A stretch of 64,000 bases of DNA from a bacterium. Its GTDB lineage: Bacteria; Patescibacteriota; Minisyncoccia; Moranbacterales; UBA2206. The notes beneath the pieces were generated by a model. The model did not search any database. It saw only the letters and a list, made by a program, of their open reading frames with translations, and was not told the origin of the DNA. Location of the stretch: assembly GCA_030654225.1 (NCBI GenBank), contig JAURXY010000031.1, positions 1,431 to 65,430 on the forward strand, written 5' to 3'. The position numbers and the translations under genes were made by a program. Positions 13,969-47,979 of the stretch are shown here, piece by piece (position 1 is the first letter of the stretch; each line of letters starts with the position of its first letter).

Positions 13969-13972
13969 AAAA

Positions 13973-17480: not shown

Positions 17481-17794
17481 GCTGAAAAACTCTCCCTGGA
17501 ATTGACTCATTTCCTGTCAAAGCCAACACAAAAAACACCATTTAAGGTGTTCCTGCGTATGTTCAAGCAAAGTAATAAGTTTCACAATCTTATGCGATTA
17601 GTCCAAGAGTCTATCATGTCCTGTACTAAAAGACACTGCAGATTCATATAGCTCTGCTGGGCATTGACGTTCCCCGATAAATCGGGGTCGACCGTCGGAT
17701 GAAATCCATACTGCACAACAACGGTTTTGAGGCCTATTGTCTTTAATGTGCAATACTCTGGAATTTCATCGGTTCTCCCTAGAAAGGAGGTGAT
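17481..17794. repeat. displaced copy of 16S rRNA 3' trailer (includes last ~13 nt of 16S and a processing-stem strand tcacaatcttatgcgattagtcc); candidate att site of the 30 kb island
   Basis: Blockwise ~70% identity to 47661-47979. The terminal 22 nt ttctccctagaaaggaggtgat are identical. Confidence 0.6.
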
Positions 17795-17914
17795 TCGTGG
17801 GAAGAATCGCAAAAAACAAGGATTATTTTCAAAATACTATCAATTTCATCACTGGAATATCATATCTCTTGGCATCTTTTTTGTCAAGAATTTAGTTTAT
17901 TTAGTTTATTTTTG

Positions 17915-18736
17915 TTAATTAAATATTTCATCACGATAAGCGATAACTCCATCTACCACTTCTTCAAATTTTGGCAAATCCCCCACCAAGGTTACCAGAT
18001 GAGCCTCCCAATATTTCTTAAATTGCTCTAGATGTTTTTTGTCCATCTGATAAATCAAATCTTTATCAATTTTTCTAAAATCACATTTTTCAAAAAAAGA
18101 ATCTTTAATCAATTTCAAGTCTAGCTTCTTGTTTTCGGAAATATACCAAATATCAAATAAATCTCGACTTCTAGGATAAGTTCGAATAGAGGCTGATGCC
18201 ATCAGTTTATCTATAATTATCTCCTCCATTTTGGTTGTTACTATTCTTGGTTTTCCAAAGATGTCAATATCAGAATATGGATGGAAAATTTCTTGCTCTG
18301 CTGGAGTAGTAAAAAGTTTGTCCACAAAAGAAAGGTCTATTTTTATTTTCGATTTTCCCTTAACACTTTGAAAATGCATCGTTCCCTTGAAAGCTTCCTC
18401 ACCATAATCCTCTCGCTCTTGTTTTACACTAAAAAATTCCAGTGTTGTGCCAAATTGCTGGTTAGCAATATTGCAAATCTGTTCTAAGACTGTCTTAACT
18501 TCTTCTTCAGTTTTTAAATTTCGATTGAATAGAGTGAAGTCCAAATCTTCAGAAAAGCGATATTCGGTGAAGTAGCATTTTTTGAGAGCAGTGCCACCAC
18601 GAAAAACCCAGTCTTTAGTTGCTGGATTTTCTGCGATAATTTTCAGAGCCACACCCAAGTGATAATCTTTTTCGATTATGCTGGGGTCGACTTTTGCTTG
18701 GGCTGCTTTTTGATAGACTTCATCTCGTGTAATCAT
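17915..18736 (-). CDS. AbiEii/DUF1814-family nucleotidyltransferase toxin (type IV TA / abortive infection)
   Basis: 273 aa. GGTALKKCYF...YRFSEDLDF motif. Sits directly downstream of an AbiEi-like gene. Confidence 0.7.
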   Translation of the reverse strand: MITRDEVYQKAAQAKVDPSIIEKDYHLGVALKIIAENPATKDWVFRGGTALKKCYFTEYRFSEDLDFTLFNRNLKTEEEVKTVLEQICNIANQQFGTTLEFFSVKQEREDYGEEAFKGTMHFQSVKGKSKIKIDLSFVDKLFTTPAEQEIFHPYSDIDIFGKPRIVTTKMEEIIIDKLMASASIRTYPRSRDLFDIWYISENKKLDLKLIKDSFFEKCDFRKIDKDLIYQMDKKHLEQFKKYWEAHLVTLVGDLPKFEEVVDGVIAYRDEIFN

Positions 18737-18743
18737 ATTATTT

Positions 18744-19541
18744 TTATGTAGTTTTCCAATTTAATAAATCTTCTTTGACAATATTTACATTCAACTTCCA
18801 CTTAGAATTCCATTGTGAATTTTCAGCTGGCAATAACGGTTCCAAAACCACTGGATTTGGGTTAGTTATAAAACTCTTTATTTTATCCAGTTCTTCCTTA
18901 TTGGAAACTTCTAAAATTTCTAGTAAATATCCTAGCCTCTTAAGAACTGGTTGTCCCATCTTATTGGCATAGTCAATTAGATTTTTTGATTGGTTAGTTT
19001 GATAAAAATTATACAGCCCCTTTATGACCTCGCTGATTCCACCACAATAAGCAGGAAAAGCCAAACAGTCTACTAGCGTCTTTTCTTGGTCAGTAATATT
19101 AACTTGGTGATTGGCTACCCAGATTTGCGTAATGCCAAAAAATCTCTTCGAATTAAGTCTAATAAACTGATATTCGCTTCCTAATATATTCTTGGAATAG
19201 TTTACAATACCCTTATTAGTTTGAATATATGTTCGCTTAGGTAATTGCTCCGTTAATCCCCAATGATTCAAGGCTGACCAAAAAGATACCGCATAGGGTT
19301 GAACCAAGTTAGCTCCAATCCAAAAATTACTGGCTGTCCAGTTTTCCTGATATCCCTCGGGCACATACAAATACACTTCTCTTTTTAATCGAATAAGCCG
19401 ATTTTCCTTTGATAATTCCGATAAGACCTTCCGAACAGTTCCCTGACTAAGGTCATTAACAATACTCCGAATCTCTGTAAAAGTGTATATCTCCTTACCA
19501 CCTCTATTTAGTTGGGCTAAAATATTATCCTTTGAACTCAT
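18744..19541 (-). CDS. AbiEi-like antitoxin / transcriptional regulator
   Basis: 265 aa. N-terminal winged HTH (FTEIRSIVNDLSQGTVRKVLSELSKENRLIRL). Canonical AbiEi-AbiEii gene order. Confidence 0.6.
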   Translation of the reverse strand: MSSKDNILAQLNRGGKEIYTFTEIRSIVNDLSQGTVRKVLSELSKENRLIRLKREVYLYVPEGYQENWTASNFWIGANLVQPYAVSFWSALNHWGLTEQLPKRTYIQTNKGIVNYSKNILGSEYQFIRLNSKRFFGITQIWVANHQVNITDQEKTLVDCLAFPAYCGGISEVIKGLYNFYQTNQSKNLIDYANKMGQPVLKRLGYLLEILEVSNKEELDKIKSFITNPNPVVLEPLLPAENSQWNSKWKLNVNIVKEDLLNWKTT

Positions 19542-19750
19542 ATGATTAACATTTAGACTTGATTAGTGGCTATTTATATGCATTATCTTAGCATATATGT
19601 TAAAAATTTGCAAATTTCATATAACAACGTCTTGTCCATTTCATTCGGTATATGTAATAGAATATTGATATTTTATAACATATACCTGTTCCTATATAAT
19701 AAAATTAGACTTTTTTATATAACCAACCATAGGATGAGATTATTGTAAAA

Positions 19751-20662
19751 TTATACCCAATTATCCATATTCATCCCCTTTTCGTGAGCCTGCTTAGCTT
19801 CGTCATCACTCAAAATTCCCAGATAGTGCTTGCTGGTGGTTTGGATGTCTGAATGTCCGAGCAAAACTTGAATATGTCCGAGACTGACACCTTTTTTCAT
19901 AAGAAGCGTAGCGAAGCTGTGACGAATTGTGTGAGCAGTGAAGCTTGCGGATAATCCTAGTTTCCTGCGGTAATTTCTGAAATTCCGCTGGGCATCATTT
20001 CTATCCCAGCGATTTGCCTTACTTTCAGCCACAAAAATAAATTTTCCTTCATAGCCTCTTTTTTCAATATATTCCCTGATACATTTCAATGACCAGTCTG
20101 TAAAATATAATTTTCTTTGTTTGTTGCCTTTACCAACAATAGTCACTTCTTTTTTCTCCCAATCCATATCTTGAATTTTCAAATTCAATGCTTCACTGAT
20201 GCGACAACCTGTTGAAATAAGGACTGAAACAAACGCTCTGAATCTAAAATCTCTGATACTGCGTTTTCCGATTGAATCAAAAAACTTTTTCAGTTCTTCT
20301 TCTGTGAGATAGTCAACTCTTCTTTTTGGAATCTTTGGTCTTTTTATTTTTTCAAAATCCATTACCTTAATATGCAATTCATCCTGACAAAATCTCAACG
20401 CTTCTCTGATAACAGATAAGTTATGGGCTCTTGTAGTTGGTTTCAATTCTCGTCTGTTATATTCTTTCTTGAGTTTTGCAATGTGTTCTTCACTCATTTT
20501 TCCAACTTCAAAATCCCCAAGTATTTCAACTGTCCATCTTATAACTTTACTGTATTCATAAATTGAAGCAGGACTCATCTCCTTTTCCAATTCACAATAA
20601 TCCAGATATTTTTTACCAGCTTCGCTAAATTTTATTGAATTTTGTTTTTTAAAAAATAACAT
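19751..20662 (-). CDS. tyrosine recombinase / phage integrase
   Basis: 303 aa. C-terminal HTIRHSF...LLGHSDIQTTSKHY (R-H-R-Y catalytic residues). Confidence 0.85.
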   Translation of the reverse strand: MLFFKKQNSIKFSEAGKKYLDYCELEKEMSPASIYEYSKVIRWTVEILGDFEVGKMSEEHIAKLKKEYNRRELKPTTRAHNLSVIREALRFCQDELHIKVMDFEKIKRPKIPKRRVDYLTEEELKKFFDSIGKRSIRDFRFRAFVSVLISTGCRISEALNLKIQDMDWEKKEVTIVGKGNKQRKLYFTDWSLKCIREYIEKRGYEGKFIFVAESKANRWDRNDAQRNFRNYRRKLGLSASFTAHTIRHSFATLLMKKGVSLGHIQVLLGHSDIQTTSKHYLGILSDDEAKQAHEKGMNMDNWV

Positions 20663-20730
20663 TGGATTTTATGGTTTGTCCAATGTTAGCTTGCGTGTGG
20701 ATTAAGTCAAATCGAGTTATGCACCGTCTA

Positions 20731-22614
20731 TTATGCCATTTCCATATACGCCTTTATTTTAGTAATTGCATCTACTACTTCGCTATTTAATCCATCAATC
20801 GATTTAAGCTCATCAATTATTTTTATCAATCGTTGAAATTTAGTATCCCCGCTTAAACCAGAAACTCCAAGAAGTTTTTCAAGGCTCGTTGAGAACATAA
20901 CATATTTTTCATCTTGGGAGCCTAGTTTTAATGCGTTATTTTCTTTCTCATTATTATTAGAATCAGTATGACTAGCTCCAGCGTCTCCATCGAATATGGT
21001 GAAGTAATTTAAATCAAATGCCTTGCAAATCATTTGATATACCTTTAATTTACTCTTTCCCCAAACTGGGATAATTGATACTGAGTATTTATCAACATTA
21101 CAGCCGATTAGATTTAAAAGTTTTGGCAATGCATATTTATCCCCTGGACCCTCAACTATTATTATTTTTTCTGTAAAAAATATCTCTAGATTTCCTCTTA
21201 AAATCAAACTAACATCTAAGCATCTTTTGGCATAACTATCTAGGTATTCTTCCATCCTATACTCATTGCCGTTGGTTGCGACTTCTTTTTGTAATAGCTT
21301 GTCTTTTTCTGGATATATCTTTCTTTTCTGAACTAGCTTTATTTGCTTCCAGTTTCTCAGTGATATAAAATTTTCTGATTGGGTTGAATAAATTATATGC
21401 AAATTTTTCTGCTCCGAAAATATATTATACATTTTCAATTGCCAGTCAACGTGAAGATGTAATTCTGGTTCGTCAATTAGTAGAATTATCGGCACTTTTT
21501 CTAAACTCGCTACATAATTAAACAGTGCATAAGATACAATGATATTAAATCCAGAACCAAGGTTTTCTGGCAATAATAATTTGTTCTGTTCTTTTTTTGC
21601 AATAAAAGCTGACTTATAGGGTTGCTCCAAATCAATGAAATCAATTTGCGCTTCAATATCAACAGAACATACGTCCTTAATGATTCGATTGACTGTTTTA
21701 ATTAAAGTACTTTTTTCATCAACTATTCCCCTCAAGTTCTGCGCTAATGTTTCATATTTTTCAGCTATATCACTAAAATTCGTCTTCTTTTCTGATTGTC
21801 TTTTCCATTTCCAATGCAAATCACCTAAAATTTTACTTACAAATGAATAGTCTCCAGAGACATCCTTGTCTCTATTCTTTGTTAAATAATAAACTTTTGG
21901 GAAATTTTTTAATCTACTGAGATTGAATGACAGAGAAAACGCAGGAAAATCTGCTGAACGTTCTCCTCCATTTTTTAATTTAAAATTTACACTATAAAAT
22001 CCGCCTCCAGTATTATCAAAGTCAACTTTTGTAGCATTGCCCAAACAACATTCTTTTACTAATTTTTTTAACTCTTCGATATCATCAACACCATCTATTT
22101 TTTCAATTGAAGAAACTTCATATGCCTTCGATTTTAGACTAGCATATATTTCTTGTCCAATTATTCCAGTTAGCGGAATAACTTCTTTATTTATTGTATA
22201 AGCATCATCGAGTATTTTTTCTTGCTTTTCTCTTCTTTTGATGGTTAATCTCACTTTATTGCACGGGACAAGGATTGTATGAGAAATTTGTTTTTCTGAT
22301 ATCACATCAATACTCGTAAAAAATGGATTGACCGTCTCCCCTTCAATAACAATTTTATCTTTAATTCCAGACGCATCACAATGAAAATCTCTTTCACATA
22401 TTTTTGTGGGAAGATAATCCTGTCCAAATAAAAAGTTTATCGCATCTAAAATAGAAGTCTTGCCACTTCCATTTCTGCCAATTATAGATGCTACGGATTC
22501 GCTATCGCAGAAATCAACAACAATTCCCTCATTATCATAACATCTGAAGTTTTTAATTGTTATGCTTTTTAATAACATACACAAAATATCTAATCTCTTA
22601 GTTATATTTCCCAA
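20731..22614 (-). CDS. OLD-family ATP-dependent nuclease (ABC-type ATPase + C-terminal TOPRIM)
   Basis: 627 aa. N-terminal IIGRNGSGKTSILDAINFLFG. C-terminal IIVEGPGDKYALPKL and FDGDAG (Toprim E and DxD). Confidence 0.7.
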   Translation of the reverse strand: MGNITKRLDILCMLLKSITIKNFRCYDNEGIVVDFCDSESVASIIGRNGSGKTSILDAINFLFGQDYLPTKICERDFHCDASGIKDKIVIEGETVNPFFTSIDVISEKQISHTILVPCNKVRLTIKRREKQEKILDDAYTINKEVIPLTGIIGQEIYASLKSKAYEVSSIEKIDGVDDIEELKKLVKECCLGNATKVDFDNTGGGFYSVNFKLKNGGERSADFPAFSLSFNLSRLKNFPKVYYLTKNRDKDVSGDYSFVSKILGDLHWKWKRQSEKKTNFSDIAEKYETLAQNLRGIVDEKSTLIKTVNRIIKDVCSVDIEAQIDFIDLEQPYKSAFIAKKEQNKLLLPENLGSGFNIIVSYALFNYVASLEKVPIILLIDEPELHLHVDWQLKMYNIFSEQKNLHIIYSTQSENFISLRNWKQIKLVQKRKIYPEKDKLLQKEVATNGNEYRMEEYLDSYAKRCLDVSLILRGNLEIFFTEKIIIVEGPGDKYALPKLLNLIGCNVDKYSVSIIPVWGKSKLKVYQMICKAFDLNYFTIFDGDAGASHTDSNNNEKENNALKLGSQDEKYVMFSTSLEKLLGVSGLSGDTKFQRLIKIIDELKSIDGLNSEVVDAITKIKAYMEMA

Positions 22615-22915
22615 TCTGAGCCGATATACAGCCTACTCTTTCTTTGTTTTTTCCTTTTTCTGATTTTTATCTTTACGCAACGATACTTTGTAAGCACCTT
22701 CGTTTACCTCATTTACATTCGGGCTTATTTTCAGAAATGCTGGTTGTTTTTCTGTTCCCCAAAATTCTTTGTTCGGTTTTGTTACTTTTGTCATATATTT
22801 TTTTGTTAATAATTTTCCTATTATTACTGTTGGTAACTTTAATAGGAAAAATTGAAAGAATAATTTTTTTTATAGAGTTTATTAAGCTGTAACTTATAAG
22901 TTTCATCTTTGAGTT

Positions 22916-23326
22916 CTAATAATTAGCAGATTCAATGATTCCAATATTATCTAGAAACTTCTGTAACACATTTTCAGCTAAGACTTTTTCAAGAAACATT
23001 TTTTCTCCTTGCGGGATAATAATATATACCCAAGAATTAACGCCATTTTTATTCAAGCTTGAAAATAATTTATATTGAGTTATTGAATGTTCAGACTCAA
23101 TATCCCCATTGCCTATCTTTGCTTCTCCCCTAATTACTCTTTTATTAAGTTCGTCATAAGCCTCAATATCAGGAATTTTGTTTTGGCAATCTCCTATATT
23201 ATTGTTATTTTCTACAGCACTAGGACATTTCACTGTTACTCCATCAACTGCATAAACATTGAATCCATTTTTCCCAAAAATACTTGCCAATTCTCTTACG
23301 AGAGAATTATGTTTTTCGCTTTCCAT
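22916..23326 (-). CDS. small PD-(D/E)xK-type nuclease-like protein
   Basis: 136 aa. IPDIEAYDE...VIRGEAK fits a PD-(x)n-ExK pattern. Confidence 0.4.
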   Translation of the reverse strand: MESEKHNSLVRELASIFGKNGFNVYAVDGVTVKCPSAVENNNNIGDCQNKIPDIEAYDELNKRVIRGEAKIGNGDIESEHSITQYKLFSSLNKNGVNSWVYIIIPQGEKMFLEKVLAENVLQKFLDNIGIIESANY

Positions 23327-23575
23327 TTTTTGTGATATAATTAGGTTAGTTAGAGAGGGTGACCGAGACCACCTTCCAAAGCAATCTCGGTCGCTCTTTT
23401 TATTTACATCGACTTGTGCGAATGCGTTCAGTCTCGGTTGTGCGAGGACTTTTTTTTACTTGTCCTTTTTTGACAAACCTACCACTGACAGAACTACGGT
23501 GAACCGTTTTTATCTTTGCCATTTGGTTTTTCTTTAATGATTATGTATATCAAAGCCAGCCCAGCTGGAAGATAT

Positions 23576-24211
23576 TTAAAAAACAGGGATATATTGAATT
23601 TCATCACTGTTCGGAACTGGAATTGAGCAAACTACTTTCCCGGCTATGTGGACATTCTCATTAGTTACAATAGGTTTATGAGATTCGTCATTTGTCACGG
23701 GCATTAGCATTAGAGCGGATTTACCCTTATAAAATCTTTTAATACAAGCAGTTCCATCAAGCACCGCAACAACATCATCGCCATTTTCGTAATAATCTTT
23801 TTGAAAAACTAAAACAAAGGATGAATCGCTTATCCCAGCCTGAAGCATTGACGTTCCCGAAGCACGGAGAAAATAATATCTATCTCGCTCATCCTTAATA
23901 AGACTCCTACTAACACTTATATAATCATCAATATTGTCCTGAGCATAAAATTCTGGGGTTCCGCACGAGGCTATCCCACGTAATGGTATTAGAACTTCAT
24001 TCTCTTTCTCGTAATGAATCTCTTGTTCTTTTTCTGCGATTGGTTCCTGCATACTTTTTACAATATCCTGTGTCCTGAAGCGTCTATCGCCTCTTTTTCC
24101 AAATCTAATTGCCTGAACTTTGCCATCATCAGCCCACTTACGAAGTGTGTTAGGATGGCAATTGAGCAATTTGCAAGCTTTTTTAAGCGTTAAAAGTTCA
24201 TTATTATTCAT
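23576..24211 (-). CDS. LexA/CI-like repressor (N-terminal HTH + C-terminal S24 peptidase)
   Basis: 211 aa. HTH LLNCHPNTLRKWADDGKV. S24 motif ASGTSM and a Lys downstream. Confidence 0.7.
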   Translation of the reverse strand: MNNNELLTLKKACKLLNCHPNTLRKWADDGKVQAIRFGKRGDRRFRTQDIVKSMQEPIAEKEQEIHYEKENEVLIPLRGIASCGTPEFYAQDNIDDYISVSRSLIKDERDRYYFLRASGTSMLQAGISDSSFVLVFQKDYYENGDDVVAVLDGTACIKRFYKGKSALMLMPVTNDESHKPIVTNENVHIAGKVVCSIPVPNSDEIQYIPVF

Positions 24212-24324
24212 TTTTATTGTTAGGTTATAGTATTAACTTACCTAATTCTAACATAACTACACTGATTGTCAACAAAAAAACAGGGTATTCCCCGTTTTAA
24301 GCCTCCTTAAATGACTACTCTAAA

Positions 24325-24837
24325 TTATTTACGTTTTTCCACACTATTCACTGCCTTAACATAATTGCAATAATCGCAATCATCTGATGCTTTTGGTATT
24401 TCAGAACTCATTAGACACTTTTTTGCATCTGCCAATGTGTTTTCTACCCAACTATCATCCAACTTATATGGAATAACTTTTATATCAAACTCCAGCTTGC
24501 CATCAAAGGCTTCCTTGTCAGCATCTCCATTGCAATAGACGAAATATCCAGTCTTGGAAACTTTGAACCCATTTTTTCTGAAAAGCCACTAATAAATCTC
24601 CATCTGTCTTTTATATCCAATCTGCCAATCAGCATCTAAGCTAACTTCTCCATTTTTTGAAGTCGCTTTATAATCCACAATCATTAGTTCTCCACTAGAA
24701 CTAACCCAAACATCATCCACTCTTTCACCAAGACTCAATATCACTAAGTTTGTTTGGTTTATATTTATCCCACTCCTCCTGTTTAACATACAACATCTTA
24801 TATTCAATCTTTTTCTGCCTATCATTTGCATCTTCAC
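24325..24837 (-). pseudogene. Cas4/RecB-like PD-(D/E)xK nuclease remnant with in-frame TAG (24589-24591) and missing N-terminus
   Basis: One frame reads ...GERVDDVW..ELMIVDYKATS...RQMEIY*WLF...CDYCNYVKAV. Motifs II, III and QhxxY are present plus a C-terminal Cys cluster. The 5' end overlaps the res stop. Confidence 0.45.
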
Positions 24838-37170: not shown

Positions 37171-37189
37171 ATTTTTGTTAGTTAAATAA

Positions 37190-38257: not shown

Positions 38258-38498
38258 TTTTTTCTGTTATTCCAATTTCACTTTCAATTTCCGAAAGAAC
38301 ATATCCACATAGAATTGTAATTACTCTCCCACGCCCAGAAATATCATATTTTTCTCTGAATACTTTTTCTACTTCCAAGAGTAATTGTTTTTGTTCTTCA
38401 AAAAATGAAATGAATTCTTGCGAGAGTTTACGATTTATAACATCAATATCAACTTCTCTTATTTTTTCTTCAAATGTTTTCTTTTTATTGTTCGTCAT
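38241..38498 (-). CDS. hypothetical protein
   Basis: 85 aa ORF overlapping the end of the MTase gene. No motif recognised. Confidence 0.3.
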   Translation of the reverse strand: MTNNKKKTFEEKIREVDIDVINRKLSQEFISFFEEQKQLLLEVEKVFREKYDISGRGRVITILCGYVLSEIESEIGITEKNGEKI

Positions 38499-38546
38499 AC
38501 TTTTTTAAATTAGTTAATTACCTGCTCGTTACTTATCCTCTTACCT

Positions 38547-39026: not shown

Positions 39027-39069
39027 TGAATTAAGTTACGCCTGCACTAGATTAGTTCAAAAGGCGTCA

Positions 39070-39279
39070 TTATTGTTTGTTTACATCAAACTTCCAATCT
39101 GGCCGATTAGTGCCTTGGTCTTTAAATTGATTGGCAAAAGCCACTAGTTTATATTCCTTGCCATCAATCGTCACTACTCCTGCCAAATACTCATTTCCTT
39201 TTTTTGACGCTTTTTTCCAAATCGCACACTTTTGAACTTGTGGCATCTCACCAAAGTTTTTCTTTTCTTCTTGTTGCAT
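39070..39279 (-). CDS. hypothetical small protein
   Basis: 69 aa, Lys-rich. Confidence 0.3.
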   Translation of the reverse strand: MQQEEKKNFGEMPQVQKCAIWKKASKKGNEYLAGVVTIDGKEYKLVAFANQFKDQGTNRPDWKFDVNKQ

Positions 39280-39295
39280 ATGTTTAAATTAAAAA

Positions 39296-40933: not shown

Positions 40934-40937
40934 ATTT

Positions 40938-41684
40938 TTATTTGTTTATAAATTTAACGAAGCCATTGTCTTGTTTAATGAATTCATAAAAGGAAAAGCG
41001 TCTGATAGCATAATCACTTGCAGGATTTCTAAGTAATATCTCTTTGACATAATTATCTATAGCAAGCTTAAAATCGCTTTCGCCATATCCCTTTCCGACC
41101 AATTTGGAATAAGCGTCTTTTAATTCAGGGGTCGTTCTTTTACATTCAGGCAAAAGTTTATTGAGAGCAGACTTATTGAATATTTTGCCACTAGGTATCC
41201 CTGTGTCTCTACTGGTTCTAAATTTATTCCAATAATCCATAACTGTTGCCATATTGGTTTCCTTAACCATATGTGTTTCCTTATTAGGCAAATCCTGCCG
41301 TTGGCTATTGTCATCATCTGCCGTCGGCACAGATTGCTGATGGCTTGTATCGCTTACGGTTTTTATCCATTCACTCTTGTCCAGAAGAATATATGTCAAA
41401 TTTTTAAACTTTCCATCTTTCTTTCTGCCTGCTTTTGTCACTTTAATGACGCAATGCATTTCCAATTTTTTAATAGCATCATAAACAGTCCTCTCTCCTA
41501 TATTCAACTTTTCAGCTATCAGCCTTTTGGATGGAAAGCATTCCTGCTCATTACTTGCGTGTCGACACAACGCCATATACACTCCAGTGGCGTTTATGCC
41601 ACAAATTTTTGCATATCCATTTAAATATGCATCATCTACTTGAAATTTTTCTTTGTTCCTTTGGTCTATAATTCGCTTTATCAT
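40938..41684 (-). CDS. winged-helix replication initiator-like protein
   Basis: 248 aa. GVYMALCRHASNEQECFPSKRLIAEKLNIGERTVYDAIKKLE is a typical Rep/DnaD-like N-terminal wHTH. Confidence 0.45.
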   Translation of the reverse strand: MIKRIIDQRNKEKFQVDDAYLNGYAKICGINATGVYMALCRHASNEQECFPSKRLIAEKLNIGERTVYDAIKKLEMHCVIKVTKAGRKKDGKFKNLTYILLDKSEWIKTVSDTSHQQSVPTADDDNSQRQDLPNKETHMVKETNMATVMDYWNKFRTSRDTGIPSGKIFNKSALNKLLPECKRTTPELKDAYSKLVGKGYGESDFKLAIDNYVKEILLRNPASDYAIRRFSFYEFIKQDNGFVKFINK

Positions 41685-42032
41685 TTTTTTAACAAAAATA
41701 GTTACACCGCCTTATGAGTGATGTAACTATTTTTTTTCATAAGGCTTATATTTAATTTTCTCTTTGCTCCTAAATAACAAAAATCTGCAATACGCTAAAA
41801 CAAACAGAATCACTTTGATTTCTGTGTGTTTGCATTGTATTGCAGACATTTTATAGTGGCCGATTGTATTCGGACCGTATTCTATTGTATCTATAGTGTA
41901 ACGCATAAATTTATGTGTGTCAATGATGAAGCCCTGTATTTATGGGCTAAAAATAGCTTTTTAGTTTGTCGTCAAGTCATAATTAACTTGTGTCCGAGCA
42001 GTAAAATTACCGCTCAAAACAAGCCAACTATT

Positions 42033-42332
42033 TTAACCTTCTAATACCTTCTTTGAAATCAAATCCTGTATTCCATTGACTAACCACCAGTAGTTCCCAT
42101 CAAATTCAACCAACTTATTAACTTTCAGCCATGCCATTCTGCGACTAAAACAATTTCCACAATAACCAGACACTATCATTAATTCTTCACATCTACTGCC
42201 TGGAAAATTCTCCAAAATACTCAGCATTTCTTCTGACTCGTTTTGTCTAATATTTATTACCTCATCAGTAAGTTCTTCGGCAATATCTTTTATGATTTCT
42301 TCGTTTACATTTTTTTGATTCTTTTTTTTCAT
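42033..42332 (-). CDS. hypothetical protein
   Basis: 99 aa. Cys pairs (CEEL...CGNC). Confidence 0.3.
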   Translation of the reverse strand: MKKKNQKNVNEEIIKDIAEELTDEVINIRQNESEEMLSILENFPGSRCEELMIVSGYCGNCFSRRMAWLKVNKLVEFDGNYWWLVNGIQDLISKKVLEG

Positions 42333-42366
42333 TGTTTTAAAATTGGTTTATTAATTGCTTTTCAAA

Positions 42367-42558
42367 TTATCGCAGATAATTTATGTCGAACTTTTTGTTG
42401 CCTTGAATGTCATTGAAATACAATAACTTTTCAATCGCAAACTCACACTCCTCCCTGCTTATTCCCAGTCTTCTAGCAATAACCACCTTAGATTTCAGAG
42501 GATTATTAGAAATAAAATCAAACACCTTGTAAATACTAGCCTTTTGTTTCTTGTTCAT
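42367..42558 (-). CDS. small HTH protein (possible excisionase/regulator)
   Basis: 63 aa. Directly downstream of and overlapping an integrase gene. Confidence 0.3.
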   Translation of the reverse strand: MNKKQKASIYKVFDFISNNPLKSKVVIARRLGISREECEFAIEKLLYFNDIQGNKKFDINYLR

Positions 42559-43502
42559 CTTGAGTTCACCTCCTCTCCAGATTTCATCTCTTTCCCAAAA
42601 TTCATTATTTCACTATGGTGCTTTTTAACTTCTTCAAAATCCAAATTTCCTATGTAAAATTTAGTCGTTACCTGACTAGAGCTGTGATTCAAAAATTTCT
42701 GAATTACGCCCAGCGGAACACCCTCCTTAAACATCAAAGTTGCAACGGAGCGTCTGGCAATTAAGTGTGGCGTAACATTTATTTTAAATCCTAATTTTTT
42801 GCCTAAATTACGAAGTCCTCGTTGCAAATCGTTAACTTGAAGTCTATTTATATTATTCATATTGATTGTTGCAAACAGTGCATCACACGCATCGTTGCCT
42901 CTCATTTCTAAATATTCTTGAATTGCCATTTGCGAAGCAGAGTTAAAAATTATTTGATGCGGACGATTTCCCTTTGTCCTAATGCTCAACACAGAACTTG
43001 TTTCAAAATCTATTTGGCTTTTGTTGAGTCCTAGAAGTTCCGAAACACGACAGCCCGTGCTGATTGCAGTCTGGATTATGGCTCTCATCCTAAGTCCAGT
43101 TATAGTCTTATTACTTGGAGCTGAAGCCAGTGTTATTAACTGTTCCTTAGTAAGATAACTGACTTCTTTCTGAGGAACTGTAAATTTTGTAACTTTGGAT
43201 TGGTCAAAAACTTTTATCCCATCTCTTTCGCATTGAGCTAAAATATGTCTCAAAATTATTAAAAAATGGTTTTTTCGGCTGGCACTAAGATTTCGTTGAT
43301 TAAGTTTTTGCTTTAGTTCAATTACAGCCATTTCATTGATTCTTTTGATATTTATGTCACCCAAAATCCTTATGAGCATTCCAGCCACTTCTTTGTATTT
43401 CTGAATAGTCCTCGGAGCTAAAATTGCATCCGCTTCGGCTTTAGCAAAAAATCTCTTGAGGCATTCAGACAGGTTGAGTTTTTTAGAAAATAGAAAATTC
43501 AT
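42555..43502 (-). CDS. tyrosine recombinase / integrase
   Basis: 315 aa. HLIARRSVATLMFKEGVPLGVIQKFLNHSSSQVTTKFY. Confidence 0.8.
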   Translation of the reverse strand: MNFLFSKKLNLSECLKRFFAKAEADAILAPRTIQKYKEVAGMLIRILGDINIKRINEMAVIELKQKLNQRNLSASRKNHFLIILRHILAQCERDGIKVFDQSKVTKFTVPQKEVSYLTKEQLITLASAPSNKTITGLRMRAIIQTAISTGCRVSELLGLNKSQIDFETSSVLSIRTKGNRPHQIIFNSASQMAIQEYLEMRGNDACDALFATINMNNINRLQVNDLQRGLRNLGKKLGFKINVTPHLIARRSVATLMFKEGVPLGVIQKFLNHSSSQVTTKFYIGNLDFEEVKKHHSEIMNFGKEMKSGEEVNSR

Positions 43503-43584
43503 ATTTTTGTCATTTATCTATCTCTATTTTCTCAAGCATTTTACTCCCTGAAAATACAGCTTGCTCAGAAATAAAATAGCAAAA

Positions 43585-43615
43585 AACCGCTCATTAAAGC
43601 GGTTTCTTTCTAGTA
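43585..43615 (-). terminator. rho-independent terminator (aaaccgctttaatgagcggttt + T-rich tail on minus strand)
   Basis: Hairpin plus U-tract downstream of the 43637..44563 gene. Confidence 0.45.
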
Positions 43616-43636
43616 AAAATATTTCTTACTCAGAAA

Positions 43637-44563
43637 TCAACTTGAAAGATATTTTAATTGCTCTTTTGTAAGATTCACCTTAGCTATTGTTCTTATAGCA
43701 ATATCGTTGTTTATTCTAAAATAACCACCATCCTTTTTTACTATTGTTTTTTGTTTATATCTTCCCTTAATAACGCTTCTTTCAAATATTTTTGAATTTA
43801 TTGAAGAGGCTATTTGGGAATCATATCTCACCTGATTATATTTTTCAGCCACCTCGCACAATGTTTTTATATAACTATGCATACCATGCTTACCTTCAGT
43901 TGAAAATTCAACATCGTGATTAAAATCATTGTTGAAAACAAGCCACACTTTTTCTTTGTGATTGCCTGGATATTTCGTAATAATAAGGATAGACTCAATC
44001 TGGAATGGGTCATTCTCTTTATTTTTAACTAAATCTACACTAGTATTGTTCTCAATATCCGCTTTTTTGACGACAACATTAGGGATGCTTAATTTTTCAA
44101 AAAGATATGCTTGTATTTTTTCCACATACTGCTTGCAACCATTGATATTATATTTCTCTGATTTTATACCATCCCACGCATCCCATAGTTTTTGTTTCTT
44201 TGTTATTTTCTTTTCCAACGCTGACAACTTCGAATAAGATTCGGAAAAATATTTGTTCACAAGATAATAAAAATTATTTTCAAATTCTTCTGAATTTTTC
44301 CTTTCGCTATTTACTCCTACTATTTTTTTAACTTCTGAGTCTATATTTTTTGCATCTTCCAACTCACTTAAAACCTTATCCTTTAATTTCAGCTTTTCTT
44401 CTAAAAGTTCGTCTTTTTGCTTTTGCATATCAGCAATAATAGCACTACATTTTTCATTTTCACTGATAAAATCAATATAATCATCAAGTAAAGATGAAAA
44501 AGCATTTATATCCTCTTGATTTATAAGGCGTTCGTAGCGATTTTGTAGTATATCTCTTTCCAT
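43637..44563 (-). CDS. hypothetical protein (N-terminal coiled coil)
   Basis: 308 aa. No recognisable motif. Confidence 0.35.
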   Translation of the reverse strand: MERDILQNRYERLINQEDINAFSSLLDDYIDFISENEKCSAIIADMQKQKDELLEEKLKLKDKVLSELEDAKNIDSEVKKIVGVNSERKNSEEFENNFYYLVNKYFSESYSKLSALEKKITKKQKLWDAWDGIKSEKYNINGCKQYVEKIQAYLFEKLSIPNVVVKKADIENNTSVDLVKNKENDPFQIESILIITKYPGNHKEKVWLVFNNDFNHDVEFSTEGKHGMHSYIKTLCEVAEKYNQVRYDSQIASSINSKIFERSVIKGRYKQKTIVKKDGGYFRINNDIAIRTIAKVNLTKEQLKYLSS

Positions 44564-44599: not shown

Positions 44600-45487
44600 C
44601 TAGTAATGTAAATACTGAGCATGAGCTTCTTTAGCACGTGCTTTATCGGTCAATCCTACATAATAACGAATTGTGGTATCTAATCTTTCGTGTCCGCATA
44701 AAGTCTTAATTTCTGTAAATGGACAATTATTGAAAGCTAGATGCGAGGCAAAGCAATGTCGCAAACAATGAGGAGTGATTTTTTTATTGATTCCTGCAAT
44801 TATTCTTTGTCTTTTAAAATATCTCGTATTGTCTTGATTTGTTAGTCTCTTAGGAATTTTGCCTGTAGTCACAAACAAAGCTGGGTTTTTATCAATACGT
44901 CTTTCTAGATATTGCTTTATCCAACTTATAGATTCTTGAGTAAAAAATACAGTTCTTTGTTTTGAGCCTTTTCCGATGACCAAACATTCTCGAGTCTGAA
45001 AATCAATGGAGGTTCTGTCTAATGAAAGTGCCTCACTAATTCGCATTCCAGTGCCGAGCAAAACTTCAACTAATGTGCGAAATCGCAAACCAACAAGTAA
45101 TCTCGTATTGATTGATTCTCTAAAACGTTTAATTTCAGAATTAGTTAAAAAAACAACCTCTCTTCGAGGACGTTTAGGAATTGTGATTAAGTCTGGATTT
45201 ATCTGAAGCTGAGCGGAGTAGTGGTCACGATAATATTTCAGAAGTCCTTTGATACAAGCCAGGCAGACTCCGATAAAAACTTCTGAATTTTCTCGTTGAT
45301 ATAAAATCTGTTTAAGTCTGAAAATATGCTCCATTGTGAATTTTTCTAATTCTATATCTCCTACATCACGAATAAAACATTTTAATCTTGACCGATAACT
45401 AACAATGGAACTTTGGGCAAATCTTTTTTCAACCTGAAGCCAAGTTAGAAATTCCTCACTGGTATTTTTTATAGTTTTATTTTCCAT
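44600..45487 (-). CDS. tyrosine recombinase / integrase
   Basis: 295 aa. TPHCLRHCFASHL...LCGHERLDTTIRYY. Confidence 0.8.
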   Translation of the reverse strand: MENKTIKNTSEEFLTWLQVEKRFAQSSIVSYRSRLKCFIRDVGDIELEKFTMEHIFRLKQILYQRENSEVFIGVCLACIKGLLKYYRDHYSAQLQINPDLITIPKRPRREVVFLTNSEIKRFRESINTRLLVGLRFRTLVEVLLGTGMRISEALSLDRTSIDFQTRECLVIGKGSKQRTVFFTQESISWIKQYLERRIDKNPALFVTTGKIPKRLTNQDNTRYFKRQRIIAGINKKITPHCLRHCFASHLAFNNCPFTEIKTLCGHERLDTTIRYYVGLTDKARAKEAHAQYLHY

Positions 45488-45739: not shown

Positions 45740-45809
45740 TCCACTCCAGCGGAAAACGGAGGTAATAGTAAAAAACCACCAGCTTGTGGCGATAAAACGG
45801 AGCGAACCT

Positions 45810-47027
45810 CTAGTTTCCCTGAAATTTAAGTTTTCGTATTTTGATTAACGGATACAGCCCAATTAAAAGAAAAATTGCTACCGAAGTAGCCATTAAAATC
45901 ATCATTGAAAACTTATCCAGTATTATTCCACCAGTAAACATGAATGCAGTTGCTCCTGCACGTATAAGCAGGCTATTTAAAGAGAGAACGCTGGAACGCA
46001 CCGACTTTGTAATGACTGCGTTCATATCAACCATAAGTTTTGTTTCAAAATACCCACGCATCAAATGAGCAACGAACATTCCAGCAAGAGCAACTATGGG
46101 CAAGCTGGTTATTCCAACGGACAAAACAGCAACTAATAAAATAAGCGTTGCGATAACAACATTCAATTTTGAAAATTTCTCGTAAAACTTTATGCCAACA
46201 GCTATGAGCAGTGTAGCTGTGCCTGCCAATACACCCCAAGAAGCAACATTGAGTCCCAGACTTAAAAACAGCGGATTATACAACCACTTAAAATTGAAGA
46301 AAAAAGCACCTATCAGAGCAGAAACAATCATTATATTTAGGAGCTGTTTATTGGTTACTGCATATTTCAAACCTTCAATGCCAACACTAATCAGATTATT
46401 GTTTTCAGTTTTTCCACTCACTCTGATTTTGGTCGTGATAACCACAACTGATGCACTAATAAGGAAAACAGCTGTAAGGTATAACGGAATTCTCAAATCA
46501 ACCGCAGAAACAAAACCCCCAATCGAAACGGCTAAAAATGTCACGGTTATCCCATACGCCTTAACTTGCGAATAATCTTTTTTGAAATCATTGGATACTG
46601 TATGCAAAAGAGCATTGTCGCTTCCTGACACAAGAGACCCACCCAACGCTAACAAAAACAATGTTAGTCCATAAAACCAAATAGTGCCTGAAAGTGAAAG
46701 TAATATATACGACAAGGCAAGAATTATGTAGCCCCAGAACACGGATATTCTGTGAGAATAATAATCCCCAATAACGCCAGTCGGATATTCCAAAAGCACA
46801 CTCATTGCATAATAAAAACCTATCAGCTGAAAAACGAGAGCTGTAGAAATATCCCTGCTGGTTAAATATAAAACCATCGTTGCCACCCAGAAGCGTGCAG
46901 AGAAAAGTATTTTTGCTATTTTTACTTTTGTCAGGTCAGTCATAAATATATAATACCACAAAAGCACAGCGGAGCGGAGTAATCTAAATAAAAAAAGAGA
47001 GGGACTCAATCGCAGATTTCTCTGCAA
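45810..47027 (-). CDS. MFS-type transporter
   Basis: 405 aa, about 12 TM helices. Confidence 0.65.
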   Translation of the reverse strand: MQRNLRLSPSLFLFRLLRSAVLLWYYIFMTDLTKVKIAKILFSARFWVATMVLYLTSRDISTALVFQLIGFYYAMSVLLEYPTGVIGDYYSHRISVFWGYIILALSYILLSLSGTIWFYGLTLFLLALGGSLVSGSDNALLHTVSNDFKKDYSQVKAYGITVTFLAVSIGGFVSAVDLRIPLYLTAVFLISASVVVITTKIRVSGKTENNNLISVGIEGLKYAVTNKQLLNIMIVSALIGAFFFNFKWLYNPLFLSLGLNVASWGVLAGTATLLIAVGIKFYEKFSKLNVVIATLILLVAVLSVGITSLPIVALAGMFVAHLMRGYFETKLMVDMNAVITKSVRSSVLSLNSLLIRAGATAFMFTGGIILDKFSMMILMATSVAIFLLIGLYPLIKIRKLKFQGN

Positions 47028-47039
47028 CCAAATCCCTCT

Positions 47040-47567
47040 TTAATACATAGCTACCAGAAGCAGGAATCCTGCGAGAGATAGCCACTCTGATGCACCAATG
47101 ACATTGAGTCTGAAATAGATATTTCTTACCCAATCATCGTCCCCAAATTTATCTGCCTCAACATCCACCTCGTCTTGATTCCAAGCTGTCAGAACCCGCC
47201 CTCTGTAAAACATCTTGTAGGTCTTTTTACTGAGCGGATAAAACAGTTTAACGCCCCAGCCGATTCCAATTAAGTCGAGAAACGGATGAGTCAGCATAGC
47301 CACGCCCACTGCGATTACCATCTTGTAATCAAGCAGAACCGCAATGACCAAAACTATACCAGGGAAGAATATTGAGTGAGAAAAATTGTCCCTGTGAGTA
47401 TGTGACCATTTGTTGAATTTGACTGCCCACGACAGAATGTAGCTGATTGGGTCAGGAACAATACCCCAAAAAGCTCCAAGCAACAAATACATTCTGCCGA
47501 CCTCGAAATCAAAAAATTTGCCAAACAACAGAAACACTAGACTGCCAGCCAACAGATGTATAAACAT
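47040..47567 (-). CDS. membrane-bound metal-dependent hydrolase-like protein (YdjM/DUF457-like)
   Basis: 175 aa. About 4 TM helices with conserved His residues (MFIHLL..., THPFLD). Confidence 0.45.
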   Translation of the reverse strand: MFIHLLAGSLVFLLFGKFFDFEVGRMYLLLGAFWGIVPDPISYILSWAVKFNKWSHTHRDNFSHSIFFPGIVLVIAVLLDYKMVIAVGVAMLTHPFLDLIGIGWGVKLFYPLSKKTYKMFYRGRVLTAWNQDEVDVEADKFGDDDWVRNIYFRLNVIGASEWLSLAGFLLLVAMY

Positions 47568-47660
47568 CGCTTTTTACCTCCCTTTTGAATTGTCAGTGAA
47601 CAACAAGATATACTAGCATAAAATATACCAAAAGTCAACATTTGGCTTCTACCTAAAAAT

Positions 47661-47979
47661 GCTAAAAAACTCACCCAGGAAACGAACTCGTTCTAGGGAG
47701 ATACACAAAAACAGGGTTTTATCCCTGCCTTGTGTTATGTCTAAACTATATCAAAGTTTCACAATCTTTTGCGATTAGTCCAAAGTCTAAACGTGCACTG
47801 TACTAAAATACACTTCAGATTCATATAGCTCTGATTGGCATTGGCGTTCTCTTAAATAAATTCAAGAGTCGACCGCCGGACAATAACCAATGCATCCCAT
47901 TATATCTTTTGACGGATATAACTTTAAATTAGGACACATCTCTGGATTATTGTCAAATTCTCCCTAGAAAGGAGGTGAT
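47661..47979. repeat. 16S rRNA 3' trailer adjacent to 16S (contains processing-stem strand tcacaatcttttgcgattagtcc at 47759-47781); paralogue of 17481-17794
   Basis: Blockwise similarity to 17481-17794. The 22-nt terminal core is identical. Confidence 0.6.

Follow-up and report, generated by a model that had tools for sequence, protein, structure and literature searches.

Genes and features of the island

The 64,000-nucleotide stretch of DNA analysed here (the window) holds a single rRNA gene, a minus-strand 16S gene, and no 23S, 5S, tRNA or tmRNA genes were found in it. Behind the 3' end of this gene lie about 30 kb of mobile and defence genes, bounded on the far side by a second copy of the sequence that follows the 16S gene (Table 1). 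Between the copies lie the genes that an earlier note on this DNA had described (integrases, Abi, restriction-modification, OLD nuclease and phage-like genes), with a YdjM-like membrane protein and an MFS transporter in addition.

Table 1. Features of the window, from the far side of the island to the 16S leader
Feature	Position	Strand	Basis or content
Probable older-element remnant	14989-17454		Pfam, PADLOC
AAA_18	14980-15483	minus	Pfam, PADLOC
Fic/SoFic-like	15502-16419	minus	Pfam, PADLOC
210 aa ORF	16768-17400	plus	within probable older-element remnant
P'-type arm on distal repeat	17455-17581	minus	aligns to the P' arms in L128, L130 and L133 and to L157 copy 2; terminator hairpin ~17529-17553, B1 motif 17481-17510, CCGCTCCGC motif
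Distal repeat unit O	17582-17794	minus	core 17773-17794, structured trailer, processing-stem strand 17582-17603
P arm, distal end of proposed newer element	17795-17914	minus	promoter-like site, identity drop against L003
AbiEi-AbiEii cassette with own promoter region	17915-19614	minus	Pfam, PADLOC
Defence/accessory cargo	19751-32751	minus	Pfam, PADLOC
Int1	19751-20662	minus	Pfam
OLD/GajA-like nuclease	20731-22614	minus	Pfam, PADLOC
Type III R-M	res 24725-27397, mod 27478-29715	minus	Pfam, PADLOC
Element backbone	32946-44563	minus	Pfam, PHROGs
Int2	32946-33830	minus	backbone gene
Int3	42555-43502	minus	backbone gene
Int4, tyrosine recombinase	44600-45487	minus	Pfam PF00589
Cargo slot between P' and integrase	45810-47567	minus	Pfam
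MFS transporter	45810-47027	minus	Pfam
YdjM-like membrane protein	47040-47567	minus	Pfam
P' arm of proposed newer element	47661-47758	minus	terminator hairpin with T-run ~47703-47728; B1 motif 47661-47690 (read)
Proximal repeat unit O (attL-like)	47759-47979	minus	comparison with distal copy and relatives
16S rRNA gene	47968-49744	minus	Rfam RF00177, 1409 bits, full model 1-1533
Pre-16S processing helix, leader (5') strand, CACAAUUUUUUGCGAUUAGUCC	49832-49853	minus	read from sequence

Four proteins in the window belong to PF00589 (Int1 to Int4). Beyond Int4, going away from the 16S gene, the backbone comprises a 308 aa ORF, Int3, an HTH/replication initiator, a PrimPol-DnaB helicase, a D12 methyltransferase, ParB, TerS, TerL, a 160 aa ORF and Int2, and this order is conserved behind Int4 homologues at L128, L130, L132, L133 and L134 (L numbers denote related loci). 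The slot between the P' arm and Int4 is filled by other genes in L133 (LexA with Multi_ubiq/ThiF/BubE), L132 and L041. The defence cargo further includes 151 aa and 319 aa ORFs, a Pif1 helicase, an S24/HTH repressor and a 136 aa ORF. The AbiE pair is a cassette that moves separately: it is 98-99.5% identical to positions 2029-3728 of L003 and is present again in L151-L153, flanked there by genes for a histidine kinase and a tRNA. The island as a whole is a composite. In the P arm, a promoter-like TTGACA-17-TATGAT (17887 to 17859; 11/12 matches) points into the distal repeat and is conserved in L003 and L145. The left copy had been described as lying 30 kb away next to housekeeping genes, but about 2.5 kb of accessory genes (the 210 aa ORF, Fic and AAA_18) separate it from these, which start at TerC. 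A Fic gene also comes after the last repeat in L157.

The 16S terminus and its two trailers

The two ~315 bp segments that bracket the island (17481-17794 and 47661-47979) are homologous and alignable from end to end (blastn 73.6% identity over 227 nt, E 1e-30), and their similarity breaks off sharply at 17794/47979. There both copies end in the 22-mer TTCTCCCTAGAAAGGAGGTGAT, which occurs at exactly two sites in the window when up to three mismatches are permitted (17773-17794 and 47958-47979) and had a match in 0 of 100 shuffles, so the shared blocks and identical core of the earlier note are borne out. Its description of the core as the last nucleotides of 16S rRNA applies to the 12 of 22 nt that fall inside the Rfam match, while the remaining 10 are trailer. 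A metagenome scan revealed the 22-mer to be a widespread 16S end across many lineages, with 16S helix 45 directly upstream in all but 2 of at least 120 matching loci; its identity between the two copies is thus not special by itself.

The right copy, contiguous with the 16S gene as had been observed, is the true trailer of that gene. Each copy contains a repeat unit, here called O, a structured trailer of ~215 nt whose last part is the 3' strand of the helix formed by leader and trailer for processing. Read by eye, the leader strand is complementary to 22 nt trailer blocks of both copies (perfect pairing with one G-U for the right copy, one mismatch for the left), in agreement with the earlier view that both retain the processing-stem strand. 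Such leader-trailer pairs are seen in relatives as reverse-complement matches and covary between lineages, and the trailer structure is conserved, with compensatory changes at 23 of 44 predicted pairs; no Rfam covariance model matched the trailer at E values up to 0.1. Both copies also carry a hairpin and T-run on the rRNA-sense strand. The B1 motif at 47661-47690 recurs in L157 copy 2 and in L128 and L130, unrelated hosts in which it lies in the P' arms of Int4-type elements. The proximal unit consists of the last 12 nt of 16S, a hairpin involving the anti-Shine-Dalgarno sequence and the structured trailer, together with the processing helix's 3' strand. Together with its P' arm it is 98.8-100% identical to its counterpart in L003, against only ~86% for the host flanks and flanking genes, which suggests that it is element-borne. 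The 16S gene itself is restored, the model being complete to position 1533. In the proximal trailer both the conserved structure and the strand complementary to the leader are retained; this trailer is predicted to work as a surrogate in rRNA processing.

Unoccupied sites, junctions and integrases in relatives

Site-specific integration into the 16S 3' end, as the earlier note had proposed, finds support in related genomes. The empty site that the note had asked to look for is there: an unoccupied arrangement, in which the 16S gene and trailer run into a conserved native flank, is present in L002, L004 and L005, the second of these sharing the SerRS-Maf-GH1-16S synteny of the window. In L001 and L003 the native flank is carried by the distal copies and leads to TerC-NUDIX genes, whose counterpart in the window is 12131-14988; the flank is absent from the window, where homology to L001/L003 begins only at 14988. 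The unoccupied site is assembled from several contigs, none of which spans GH1-16S-flank-TerC, and all sequences are metagenome assemblies, in which 16S regions are prone to chimeric joins. Direct repeats bracket an element in L003 and L157 as well. On the 226 kb contig of L157, repeats that share 99% identity over 103 nt, at 9824 and 16151, enclose a complete element of 6.3 kb; beyond it come the remains of an older one and a third copy, which is partial.

The starts of four independent non-16S junctions fall no more than 2 nt apart, at ATCACCTCC or CACCTCC, namely (a slash marking the junction) CACGA/ATCACCTCC in the window and L003, AACCCC/ATCACCTCC in L157, CTCAAA/CACCTCC in L156 and GGAAG/CACCTCC in L150. 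The P arms differ between these junctions while the junction position stays constant. In L156 the integrase protein is that of L154 and the core, trailer and P' arm are 100% identical between the two, with an RND-MFP gene on the left side where L154 has 16S; this locus (P arm, core, trailer and integrase without 16S) could be an attP, but is compatible with a tandem junction too.

Int4 has motifs that read as the catalytic tyrosine-recombinase residues, GMRISE (R), GKGSK (K), HCLRH (HxxR), GHE (H) and RYY (Y). It is the best match (42.6% identity) to the integrase of L006, which follows a trailer at the contig start, and further homologues lie behind 16S in L041, L128, L130, L132, L133 and L135. 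The clade of Int4 and its sister IntA is found 0.2-3.6 kb downstream of 16S 3' ends in 11 independent contexts, a count that covers this clade alone. Integrase starts lie 177-3558 nt past the 16S 3' end (window, L041/L135, L128, L130, L132, L133, L018, L111, L154/155 and L157), and the gene upstream of 16S varies among these loci (GH1, FtsX, MurD, an rpsI-containing region, DnaJ). The question of which of the four integrases is cognate can thus be answered with a candidate, Int4, which by this association is predicted to act at the 16S-end site and to catalyse integration. Int4 has a very large number of homologues, and these are well conserved; their spread may therefore be largely vertical. 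A search of the viral collection found no close relative of Int4 or TerL.

Repeats of this length could also make the trailer a recombination hot spot, entered by relatives' DNA anywhere in its ~215 nt through RecA-type (Campbell) exchange, with the integrases serving other purposes. Mosaic copies fit such an account (in the L003 distal copy the 5' half is L-type and the 3' half R-type, and in L002 the native flank adjoins an R-type trailer), as do the two copies of the JBAQNP01 MAG, identical over at least 127 nt, the lack of an integrase between the repeats of L003, and a microhomology deletion in L145. The mosaics do indicate that homologous exchange between copies also happens. Homologous recombination would not, however, fix the end of homology in unrelated elements, as the four junctions within 2 nt would demand, and the tie of one integrase clade to the site in 11 contexts likewise makes it unlikely that a hot spot is what we see.

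We regard as quite improbable a second account, in which elements integrate site-specifically past the trailer, at the processing-stem end or B1, so that the 16S-adjacent trailer is native and the far copy (12 nt of 16S plus trailer) is cargo from an earlier imprecise excision. B1-like motifs do stand at the outer ends of both window copies, and the internal junction of L003 lies exactly at the B1 start. Moreover, the trailer beside the 16S gene matches the leader of the same host, also in such distant hosts as L128 and L130, which would fit long co-residence or conversion but also a host-native trailer. Against this, the distal copies of L003 and L001 run into native flank rather than B1, the shared trailer, P' arm and integrase block of L154 and L156 has different left flanks, and L004, a close relative by upstream synteny, has the other trailer type beside its 16S. 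The distal trailer also differs strongly between the window and L003 where adjoining element DNA is 90-99% identical: beyond the AbiE cassette, identity is 90% in the P arm and 100% in the core and drops to 49-69% directly beyond it, an argument weakened by the mobility of the AbiE cassette on its own.

That the left copy is the leftover of a second rRNA operon minus its 16S gene, the alternative named in the earlier note, is scarcely credible: it does retain a 16S terminus, trailer structure, stem strand and terminator, but it has just 12 nt of 16S, abutting the 3' flank of AbiEii in a junction that recurs in L003, where an intact 16S gene lies 2.1 kb away, it bears an element-type P' arm, the related loci examined each have a single 16S followed by this flank, and Rfam finds nothing else in 17000-48000 even at E 0.1.

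A proposed array of elements at the 16S gene and its relation to known systems

We therefore favour, as the likely explanation, a tandem array of tyrosine-integrase elements inserted by site-specific recombination. Their target in this Moranbacteria-like (Patescibacteria/CPR) genome would be the 3' end of its 16S gene, which is single and unlinked. Attachment sites would start 10-12 nt ahead of the 16S 3' end, and the crossover would fall within the 22 nt core of the ~215 nt repeat. Each element would bring the final bases of 16S with the anti-Shine-Dalgarno CCUCC, a small hairpin pairing with that sequence, a structured trailer of ~200 nt that closes with the 3' strand of the processing helix, and a terminator. 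Integration would replace the host trailer by the element's surrogate and leave the rRNA precursor intact, and the earlier trailer would end up orphaned on the far side. The idea that the element reconstitutes the 16S terminus holds in this form, though what it supplies is mainly the ~215 nt trailer with processing-stem strand and terminator.

The newer element would span ~17795-47957 (surrogate trailer, YdjM/MFS cargo, Int4, backbone, defence cargo, Int1 and AbiE cassette) and may still be able to excise. It would have inserted beside an Int4-type element of greater age, now reduced to its proximal junction (17455-17794) and the Fic/AAA remnant. The P'-type arm at 17455-17581, which has no match to the native flank of L001-L005, marks the left copy as attL of this older element, hence the array; the left copy is probably the proximal junction of a decayed element and not a displaced native trailer.

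The closest known systems are the genomic islands and prophages integrated in tRNA and tmRNA genes (the Islander/TIGER concept; PMC4383910, PMC7192596). Common to both are a tyrosine integrase that usually adjoins the target, a target at the 3' end of a stable-RNA gene, an element-borne replacement for the displaced 3' part, a displaced fragment marking the far end, and tandem arrays with the newest element nearest the gene. The window shows a tyrosine recombinase, direct repeats of which one overlaps the 16S end, a restored target, unoccupied relatives and a site-associated integrase clade. In contrast to those islands, its repeats are diverged rather than identical, and its element replaces only 10-12 nt of mature RNA and must supply a precursor trailer of ~215-300 nt with processing-helix strand, structured spacer and terminator. 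Since the target is 16S rRNA, and the window lacks tRNA and tmRNA genes, we class the island as a variant of the tDNA type and not a member. Elements that supplant tmRNA genes ('gene replacement'; PMC7192596) likewise bring their own functional version of what they displace, whereas here the 3' terminus and trailer are replaced and not the whole gene.

A search of the literature found no earlier description of the 16S rRNA 3' end as an integration target. Eukaryotic rDNA elements (the R1/R2 retrotransposons and Pokey) use retrotransposon or transposase mechanisms, insert within the gene, inactivate that copy and rely on many rDNA copies. They too exploit an rRNA gene as a conserved, dependable target, but the 16S gene of the window is apparently single-copy and kept intact. 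CPR 16S genes reportedly contain insertions and introns with LAGLIDADG endonucleases, and insertions of this kind are seen in L002, L003, L133 and L154. They share host group, gene and the use of conserved rRNA sequence with the elements described here; they interrupt the gene itself, are excised from its RNA and spread through homing, whereas the latter are multi-gene, integrase-borne and located behind the gene.

With its integrase, replication initiator, primase-helicase, ParB, methylase, TerS/TerL, repressor and defence cargo, the island also resembles PICI-like satellites and cryptic prophages, from which it differs by the three recombinases in its conserved backbone. Pfam and PHROGs detected TerS and TerL only, with no hits to capsid, portal or tail genes among the other ORFs, so it is not a complete prophage. 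The gene set is compatible with a PICI-like satellite; such satellites have an integrase, a replication module and genes that redirect packaging, for which they need a helper phage, and none is known for this element.

An island of ~30 kb thus sits at the last 10-12 bases of the genome's only 16S gene with its own downstream processing region. Insertion at the 16S end is integration of the tRNA type with a new target, for which excision and integrase catalysis are predicted.

The 16S end and its two trailer copies

The sole rRNA gene in the window is 16S (Rfam), and the RNA gene search of the whole window gave no 23S, 5S or tRNA genes; we take the 16S of Moranbacteria to be single-copy and unlinked from 23S. 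The window genes lie almost all on the minus strand, and GC content is ~35%. Two segments of ~315 bp, which the earlier note had described as ending in an identical 22-nt core, indeed align end to end (73.6% identity over 227 nt, blastn E 1e-30), with similarity stopping abruptly at 17794/47979 and the 22-mer TTCTCCCTAGAAAGGAGGTGAT occurring exactly twice (0/100 shuffles). The note also took this core to be the last nucleotides of 16S, which is borne out only in part: each copy starts, in rRNA sense, with AUCACCUCCUUUCUAGGGAGAA, of which the first 12 nt lie inside the Rfam 16S match and the rest outside it. Approximately 190 nt past this start both copies carry GGACUAAUCGCA(A/U)AAGAUUGUG, complementary to the 16S leader CACAAUUUUUUGCGAUUAGUCC, and both retain the strand of the processing stem, as had been proposed, the right copy forming 22 bp with one G-U and the left copy having one mismatch. 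This 22 bp pairing is the putative pre-16S processing helix; predicted duplex energies for long leader versus trailer stretches were barely above those of shuffled controls, leaving only this specific helix informative. Past the stem strand, each window copy has a hairpin and then a T-run.

Alignment of nine copies delimits a repeat unit, O, of ~215 nt, bounded on one side by the last 12 nt of 16S and on the other by the end of the processing-stem strand. At occupied sites, O in the 16S-adjacent copies gives way to element-specific sequence; in distal copies and at unoccupied sites it is followed by a conserved native flank leading to TerC. The RNA structure of O is conserved, with compensatory changes at 23 of the 44 predicted pairs (10 copies). 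Its 5' half folds as one long hairpin, of which the two sequence types are compensatory variants, and a small invariant hairpin pairs CCUCCU with AGGGAG. The latter would mask the anti-Shine-Dalgarno sequence in the precursor. No Rfam family matched the trailer or sequence elsewhere in the island. In two relatives (L001 121-200; L005, after the stem strand) the stem-strand end is doubled ~50 nt apart, AATCGCATAAGATTGTGA ... AAATCGCAAAAAATTATGA, with a hairpin between, possibly a scar left when sequence was inserted or lost at the repeat's 3' edge.

The 16S gene itself varies by insertion. Two 131 nt segments of the window gene (49063-49193 and 49551-49681) are 97% identical and lie within stretches (~49037-49189 and ~49530-49675) mostly missing from the otherwise near-identical 16S of L004; from the sequence, they look like one short insertion at two positions of the gene. 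Insertions near the 3' end, none of which is present in the window 16S, occur in L002 (2592-3230 and 3506-3940), L003 (1101-1535), L133, L154 (9087-9632) and L157. Insertion ORFs of L002 (2592-3230) and L154 match LAGLIDADG_2 (Pfam), the remaining insertions being judged from sequence, and weak group-II-D1D4 matches (Rfam) occur in L003 and L157.

Unoccupied sites, junctions and the probable crossover

Species-representative genomes scanned with two conserved trailer blocks yielded six loci (L001-L160 denote related or comparison loci from genome, metagenome and viral collections), and the related loci with an organism label all belong to Candidatus Moranbacteria/Moraniibacteriota or the Parcubacteria group. 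In L004, whose upstream synteny is that of the window (SerRS-Maf-GH1-16S), the sequence past the processing-stem strand runs into the native flank, TACAAAAAAACAAAAATACTCG...CCGCAATCCGCAACGTCGGGTTG, as it does in L005 and L002. L001 and L006, two contigs of one MAG (JBAQNP01), have their first 127 nt (trailer) in common and then fork, the L001 branch continuing through native flank to TerC-NUDIX (83% identity to window 14988-12131) and the L006 branch through a terminator directly to an integrase, followed by TerS, a second integrase and GmrSD. L003 carries two copies 2.1 kb apart, in the order 16S-core-trailer-AbiEi-AbiEii-core-trailer-native flank-TerC, and lacks the 28 kb present in the window between ~19615 and 47679. 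An unoccupied site of the kind the earlier note had envisaged, GH1-16S-trailer-native flank-TerC, is thereby reconstructed from several relatives' loci combined, and these loci also show the same 16S-end place occupied by different elements. The window TerC protein had no identical-sequence match, possibly owing to a difference in annotated start codon.

The evidence for integration at the 16S end is comparative throughout, drawn from metagenome assemblies. At four independent junctions where non-16S sequence meets the repeat, the start points are no more than 2 nt apart: ATCACCTCC follows CACGA in the window and L003 and AACCCC in copy 2 of L157, and CACCTCC follows CTCAAA in L156 and GGAAG in L150. 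L157, from a contig of 226 kb, is a complete example, ordered 16S, core (9824), trailer, IntA, DpnI, REP, Int, DUF2441 and core (16151), its repeats at 9824 and 16151 being 99% identical over 103 nt; beyond 16151 lie a 2 kb remnant, a third partial copy (18154) and then Fic. L156 has the same IntA protein as L154 and a 100% identical core, trailer and P' arm (the stretch past the trailer on the integrase side), with an RND-MFP gene to the left of its core and no 16S, an arrangement that would be expected of an attP or of a junction inside a tandem array. The window and L003 are 98-99.5% identical over AbiE, 90% over the P arm (the distal element end) and 100% over the core, after which identity falls to 69% and 49%, with the 16S-adjacent trailer and the DNA following it 98.8-100% identical and the flanking genes ~86%. 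From the junction positions, L157, L156 and this identity profile we conclude that the crossover probably takes place at the core or very close to it, and that the element would have brought the trailer now next to 16S.

Exchange between trailer copies also takes place, as seen in the mosaic distal copy of L003, in L002, where native flank follows one of the trailer types, and in the JBAQNP01 copies, with at least 127 nt identical. In distant hosts the 16S-adjacent trailer matches the leader of its own host, which implies long co-residence with conversion or, less likely, a host-native trailer.

The AbiE pair is a movable cassette whose left boundary, TTTGCAAATTTTTAAC, is constant across the window, L003, L143-149 and L151-153; in the last of these groups it stands between a histidine kinase gene and a tRNA gene. 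The contexts of the window AbiEi-AbiEii cassette (91-98% protein identity) in L143-L149 and L151-L153 are unrelated, and also include neighbouring AAA_18 genes and a mutator-family transposase. L003 thus carries either a minimal version of the window element or a deletion derivative of it. L145 has no core, a loss that looks like a deletion between two TGATGAAATT repeats.

Integrases and island content

IntA, the trailer-adjacent integrase of L006, is closest to Int4 of the window (42.6% identity, E 1e-84), in which putative catalytic-residue motifs can be read. At E thresholds of 1e-20 and 1e-40, homologues of the two clades (Int4, IntA) numbered 922 and 1023, respectively. Wherever upstream DNA sufficed, the 16S 3' end was found 177-3558 nt ahead of the integrase start on the same strand, for the Int4 clade in the window, L041/L135-142, L128, L130, L132 and L133, and for the IntA clade in L018, L111, L154/155 and L157, with L006 beginning inside the trailer. 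That Int4 is a host Xer gene held beside 16S by synteny was rejected given its absence from the close relatives L003, L004 and L005, and is also at odds with the varying gene upstream of 16S among integrase loci (GH1, FtsX, MurD, an rpsI-containing region, DnaJ) and with the phage-like genes with which Int4 travels. No second trailer copy was found within 10 kb of the integrase in L128, L130, L132 and L133, because these elements are longer than the DNA examined. The viral collection contained no close relatives of Int4 or TerL, and the integrase-clade profile found relatives there only at 38% identity or less. L135 and L136-L141 have an identical Int4 homologue and 16S-trailer sequence in different upstream contexts (SerRS versus DnaJ); either the rearrangement is real or the assemblies are chimeric, joined through the conserved 16S.

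The genes reported between the copies in the earlier note (integrases, Abi, R-M, OLD nuclease, phage-like genes) were recovered with Pfam, PHROGs and PADLOC, to which an MFS transporter and a YdjM-like protein adjoining the right copy are added.

Features of the window
Feature	Position	Remark
MurG, FtsW, TrmD, TerC		left-flank housekeeping genes
Left (distal) copy	17481-17794
Core, left copy	17773-17794
P arm	17795-17914
AbiEi, AbiEii		between copies
Int1	19751-20662	tyrosine recombinase
Int2	32946-33830	tyrosine recombinase
Int3	42555-43502	tyrosine recombinase
Int4	44600-45487	tyrosine recombinase
OLD/GajA-like nuclease		between copies
S24 repressor		between copies
Type III restriction-modification pair		between copies
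Pif1		between copies
TerS, TerL, ParB, D12 methylase, PrimPol-DnaB, replication initiator		between copies
Right (16S-adjacent) copy	47661-47979
Core, right copy	47958-47979
16S	47968-49744	minus strand
16S leader pairing strand	49832-49853
GH1, Maf, SerRS, LysRS, GreA, PBP2, MreC		right-flank housekeeping genes

After the Int4 homologues comes a conserved backbone, X-Int3-replication genes-methylase-ParB-TerS-TerL-Y-Int2, which the window shows in the same order from 44563 down to 32946. In the slot between trailer and Int4 the cargo varies, with YdjM and MFS genes in the window, and LexA-like and Multi_ubiq/ThiF/BubE genes in L133. The L133 cargo (7143-9949) comprises LexA/S24 repressor, Multi_ubiq, ThiF/DUF6791 and BubE genes, which we read as ubiquitin-like (Bil-type) defence. 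A LOOT RNA (Rfam RF03000, 87-91 bits) lies just past the Int2-like backbone gene in L128 (19798-19924), L129 (10144-10270) and L133 (17842-17966), and the equivalent place in the window gave no LOOT match even at E 0.1 (Rfam). No further core copies occur inside the island, so Int1-Int3 mark no further insertions at the 16S-end site.

A probable older junction, orphan copies and implications

Past its stem strand the left copy lacks the native flank and has its own terminator and a motif, TTTGACAGGAAATG..TTCCAGGGAGAGTTTTTCAGCAG..CCGCTCCGC. This motif is also present directly upstream of the Int4 homologues of L128, L130 and L133, despite the otherwise unrelated trailers of these loci, and in L157 copy 2. 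The 2.5 kb to the left of this copy, with a 210 aa ORF, Fic (SoFic/PDC-S04 model match) and AAA_18, have no counterpart in L001 or L003. The left copy is most simply read as the old proximal junction of a decayed Int4-type element. An older element of this type would first have occupied the 16S site and later decayed; the present element would then have integrated at the 16S-adjacent core, displacing the older one outward, the same way in which tandem tRNA-gene islands arise. The 5' end of AAA_18 (15419-15492) is repeated at 16499-16572 (78% identity), ~80 nt beyond the Fic start codon (16419), which suggests a decayed second copy and fits 14989-17454 as accessory DNA.

A metagenome scan with the 22-mer gave at least 120 loci (L008-L127), directly after 16S helix 45 in all but two of those listed, and among the matches listed the right-copy 22-mer, ATCACCTCCTTTCTAGGGAGAA, is the 16S end in many unrelated lineages. 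As the core is the 16S terminus in many phyla, a speculative possibility is that the potential host range of these integrases is very broad. An orphan core in L051 was set aside as a chance match in the Shine-Dalgarno region of an opposite-strand gene. Neither a trailer block nor the 22-mer was informative in scans of viral contigs, where the one match (L007) is an ordinary 16S end. In L070 (oriented position 702) an orphan 16S tail with ~45 nt of trailer adjoins a putative MazF-like gene (read from sequence) and is 87% identical to the 16S-adjacent trailer of L086, whose 16S end differs in sequence and which is taken as non-CPR; the phenomenon may thus extend beyond Moranbacteria.

The orphan copies may be transcribed. 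A promoter-like site matching 11 of 12 consensus positions points into the window's orphan copy (17859-17887, minus strand) and is also found in L003 and L145; others occur at the orphan copies of L160 (6902-6930, 11/12) and L156 (1802-1830, 9/12), none was found in the L157 P arm, and each orphan unit has its own terminator. That these units of 16S tail and trailer are small genes, expressed from a P-arm promoter as an RNA acting in trans, is as a whole improbable. If true, the ~320 nt RNA would include the anti-Shine-Dalgarno sequence along with the 22 nt that can pair with the 16S leader, and could influence pre-16S processing in trans or mimic the anti-Shine-Dalgarno; through it the element could monitor or tune ribosome production in the host, or else regulate its own integrase across attP. 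In L160 (IMGVR_UViG_3300035208_000971, classed viral), a locus without 16S, an integrase 38% identical to IntA is followed 225 nt later by an orphan ATCACCTCCTTTCTAGGGAGA with ~170 nt of trailer-like sequence and a hairpin with T-run (7087-7260); this locus may represent a phage attP of this type. On the plus strand of the window (17684-17797), a 37 codon ORF starts with GTG, and 2 nt ahead of this codon the complement of the orphan anti-Shine-Dalgarno supplies a perfect ribosome-binding site, AAAGGAGGTGAT. L003 retains the ORF with a single amino-acid change; these two sequences, being closely related, are too few for a judgement.

The system resembles islands at tRNA and tmRNA genes (PMC4383910, PMC7192596) in its tyrosine integrase, the 3' end of a stable RNA as target, restoration by the element, a displaced far-end fragment and tandem arrays. 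In contrast to those islands, the defining target here is 16S, for which reason we count the element as a variant rather than a member of the tDNA type, and the restored part is mostly precursor trailer, not mature RNA. A full-text literature search, incomplete in coverage and thus absence of evidence only, found no report of an integrase targeting the 16S 3' end. An rRNA gene would join the stable-RNA integration targets, with an element that must rebuild the precursor-processing region and not just the mature end. The integrases could serve for putting DNA into bacteria that are not yet engineerable, since the short recognised site ends 16S in many phyla. Mobile elements would also be tied directly to a taxonomic marker in metagenomes, where they may help explain the frequent assembly breaks just behind 16S. 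For the Moranbacteria, the 16S 3' end would be a main landing pad for mobile and defence genes.
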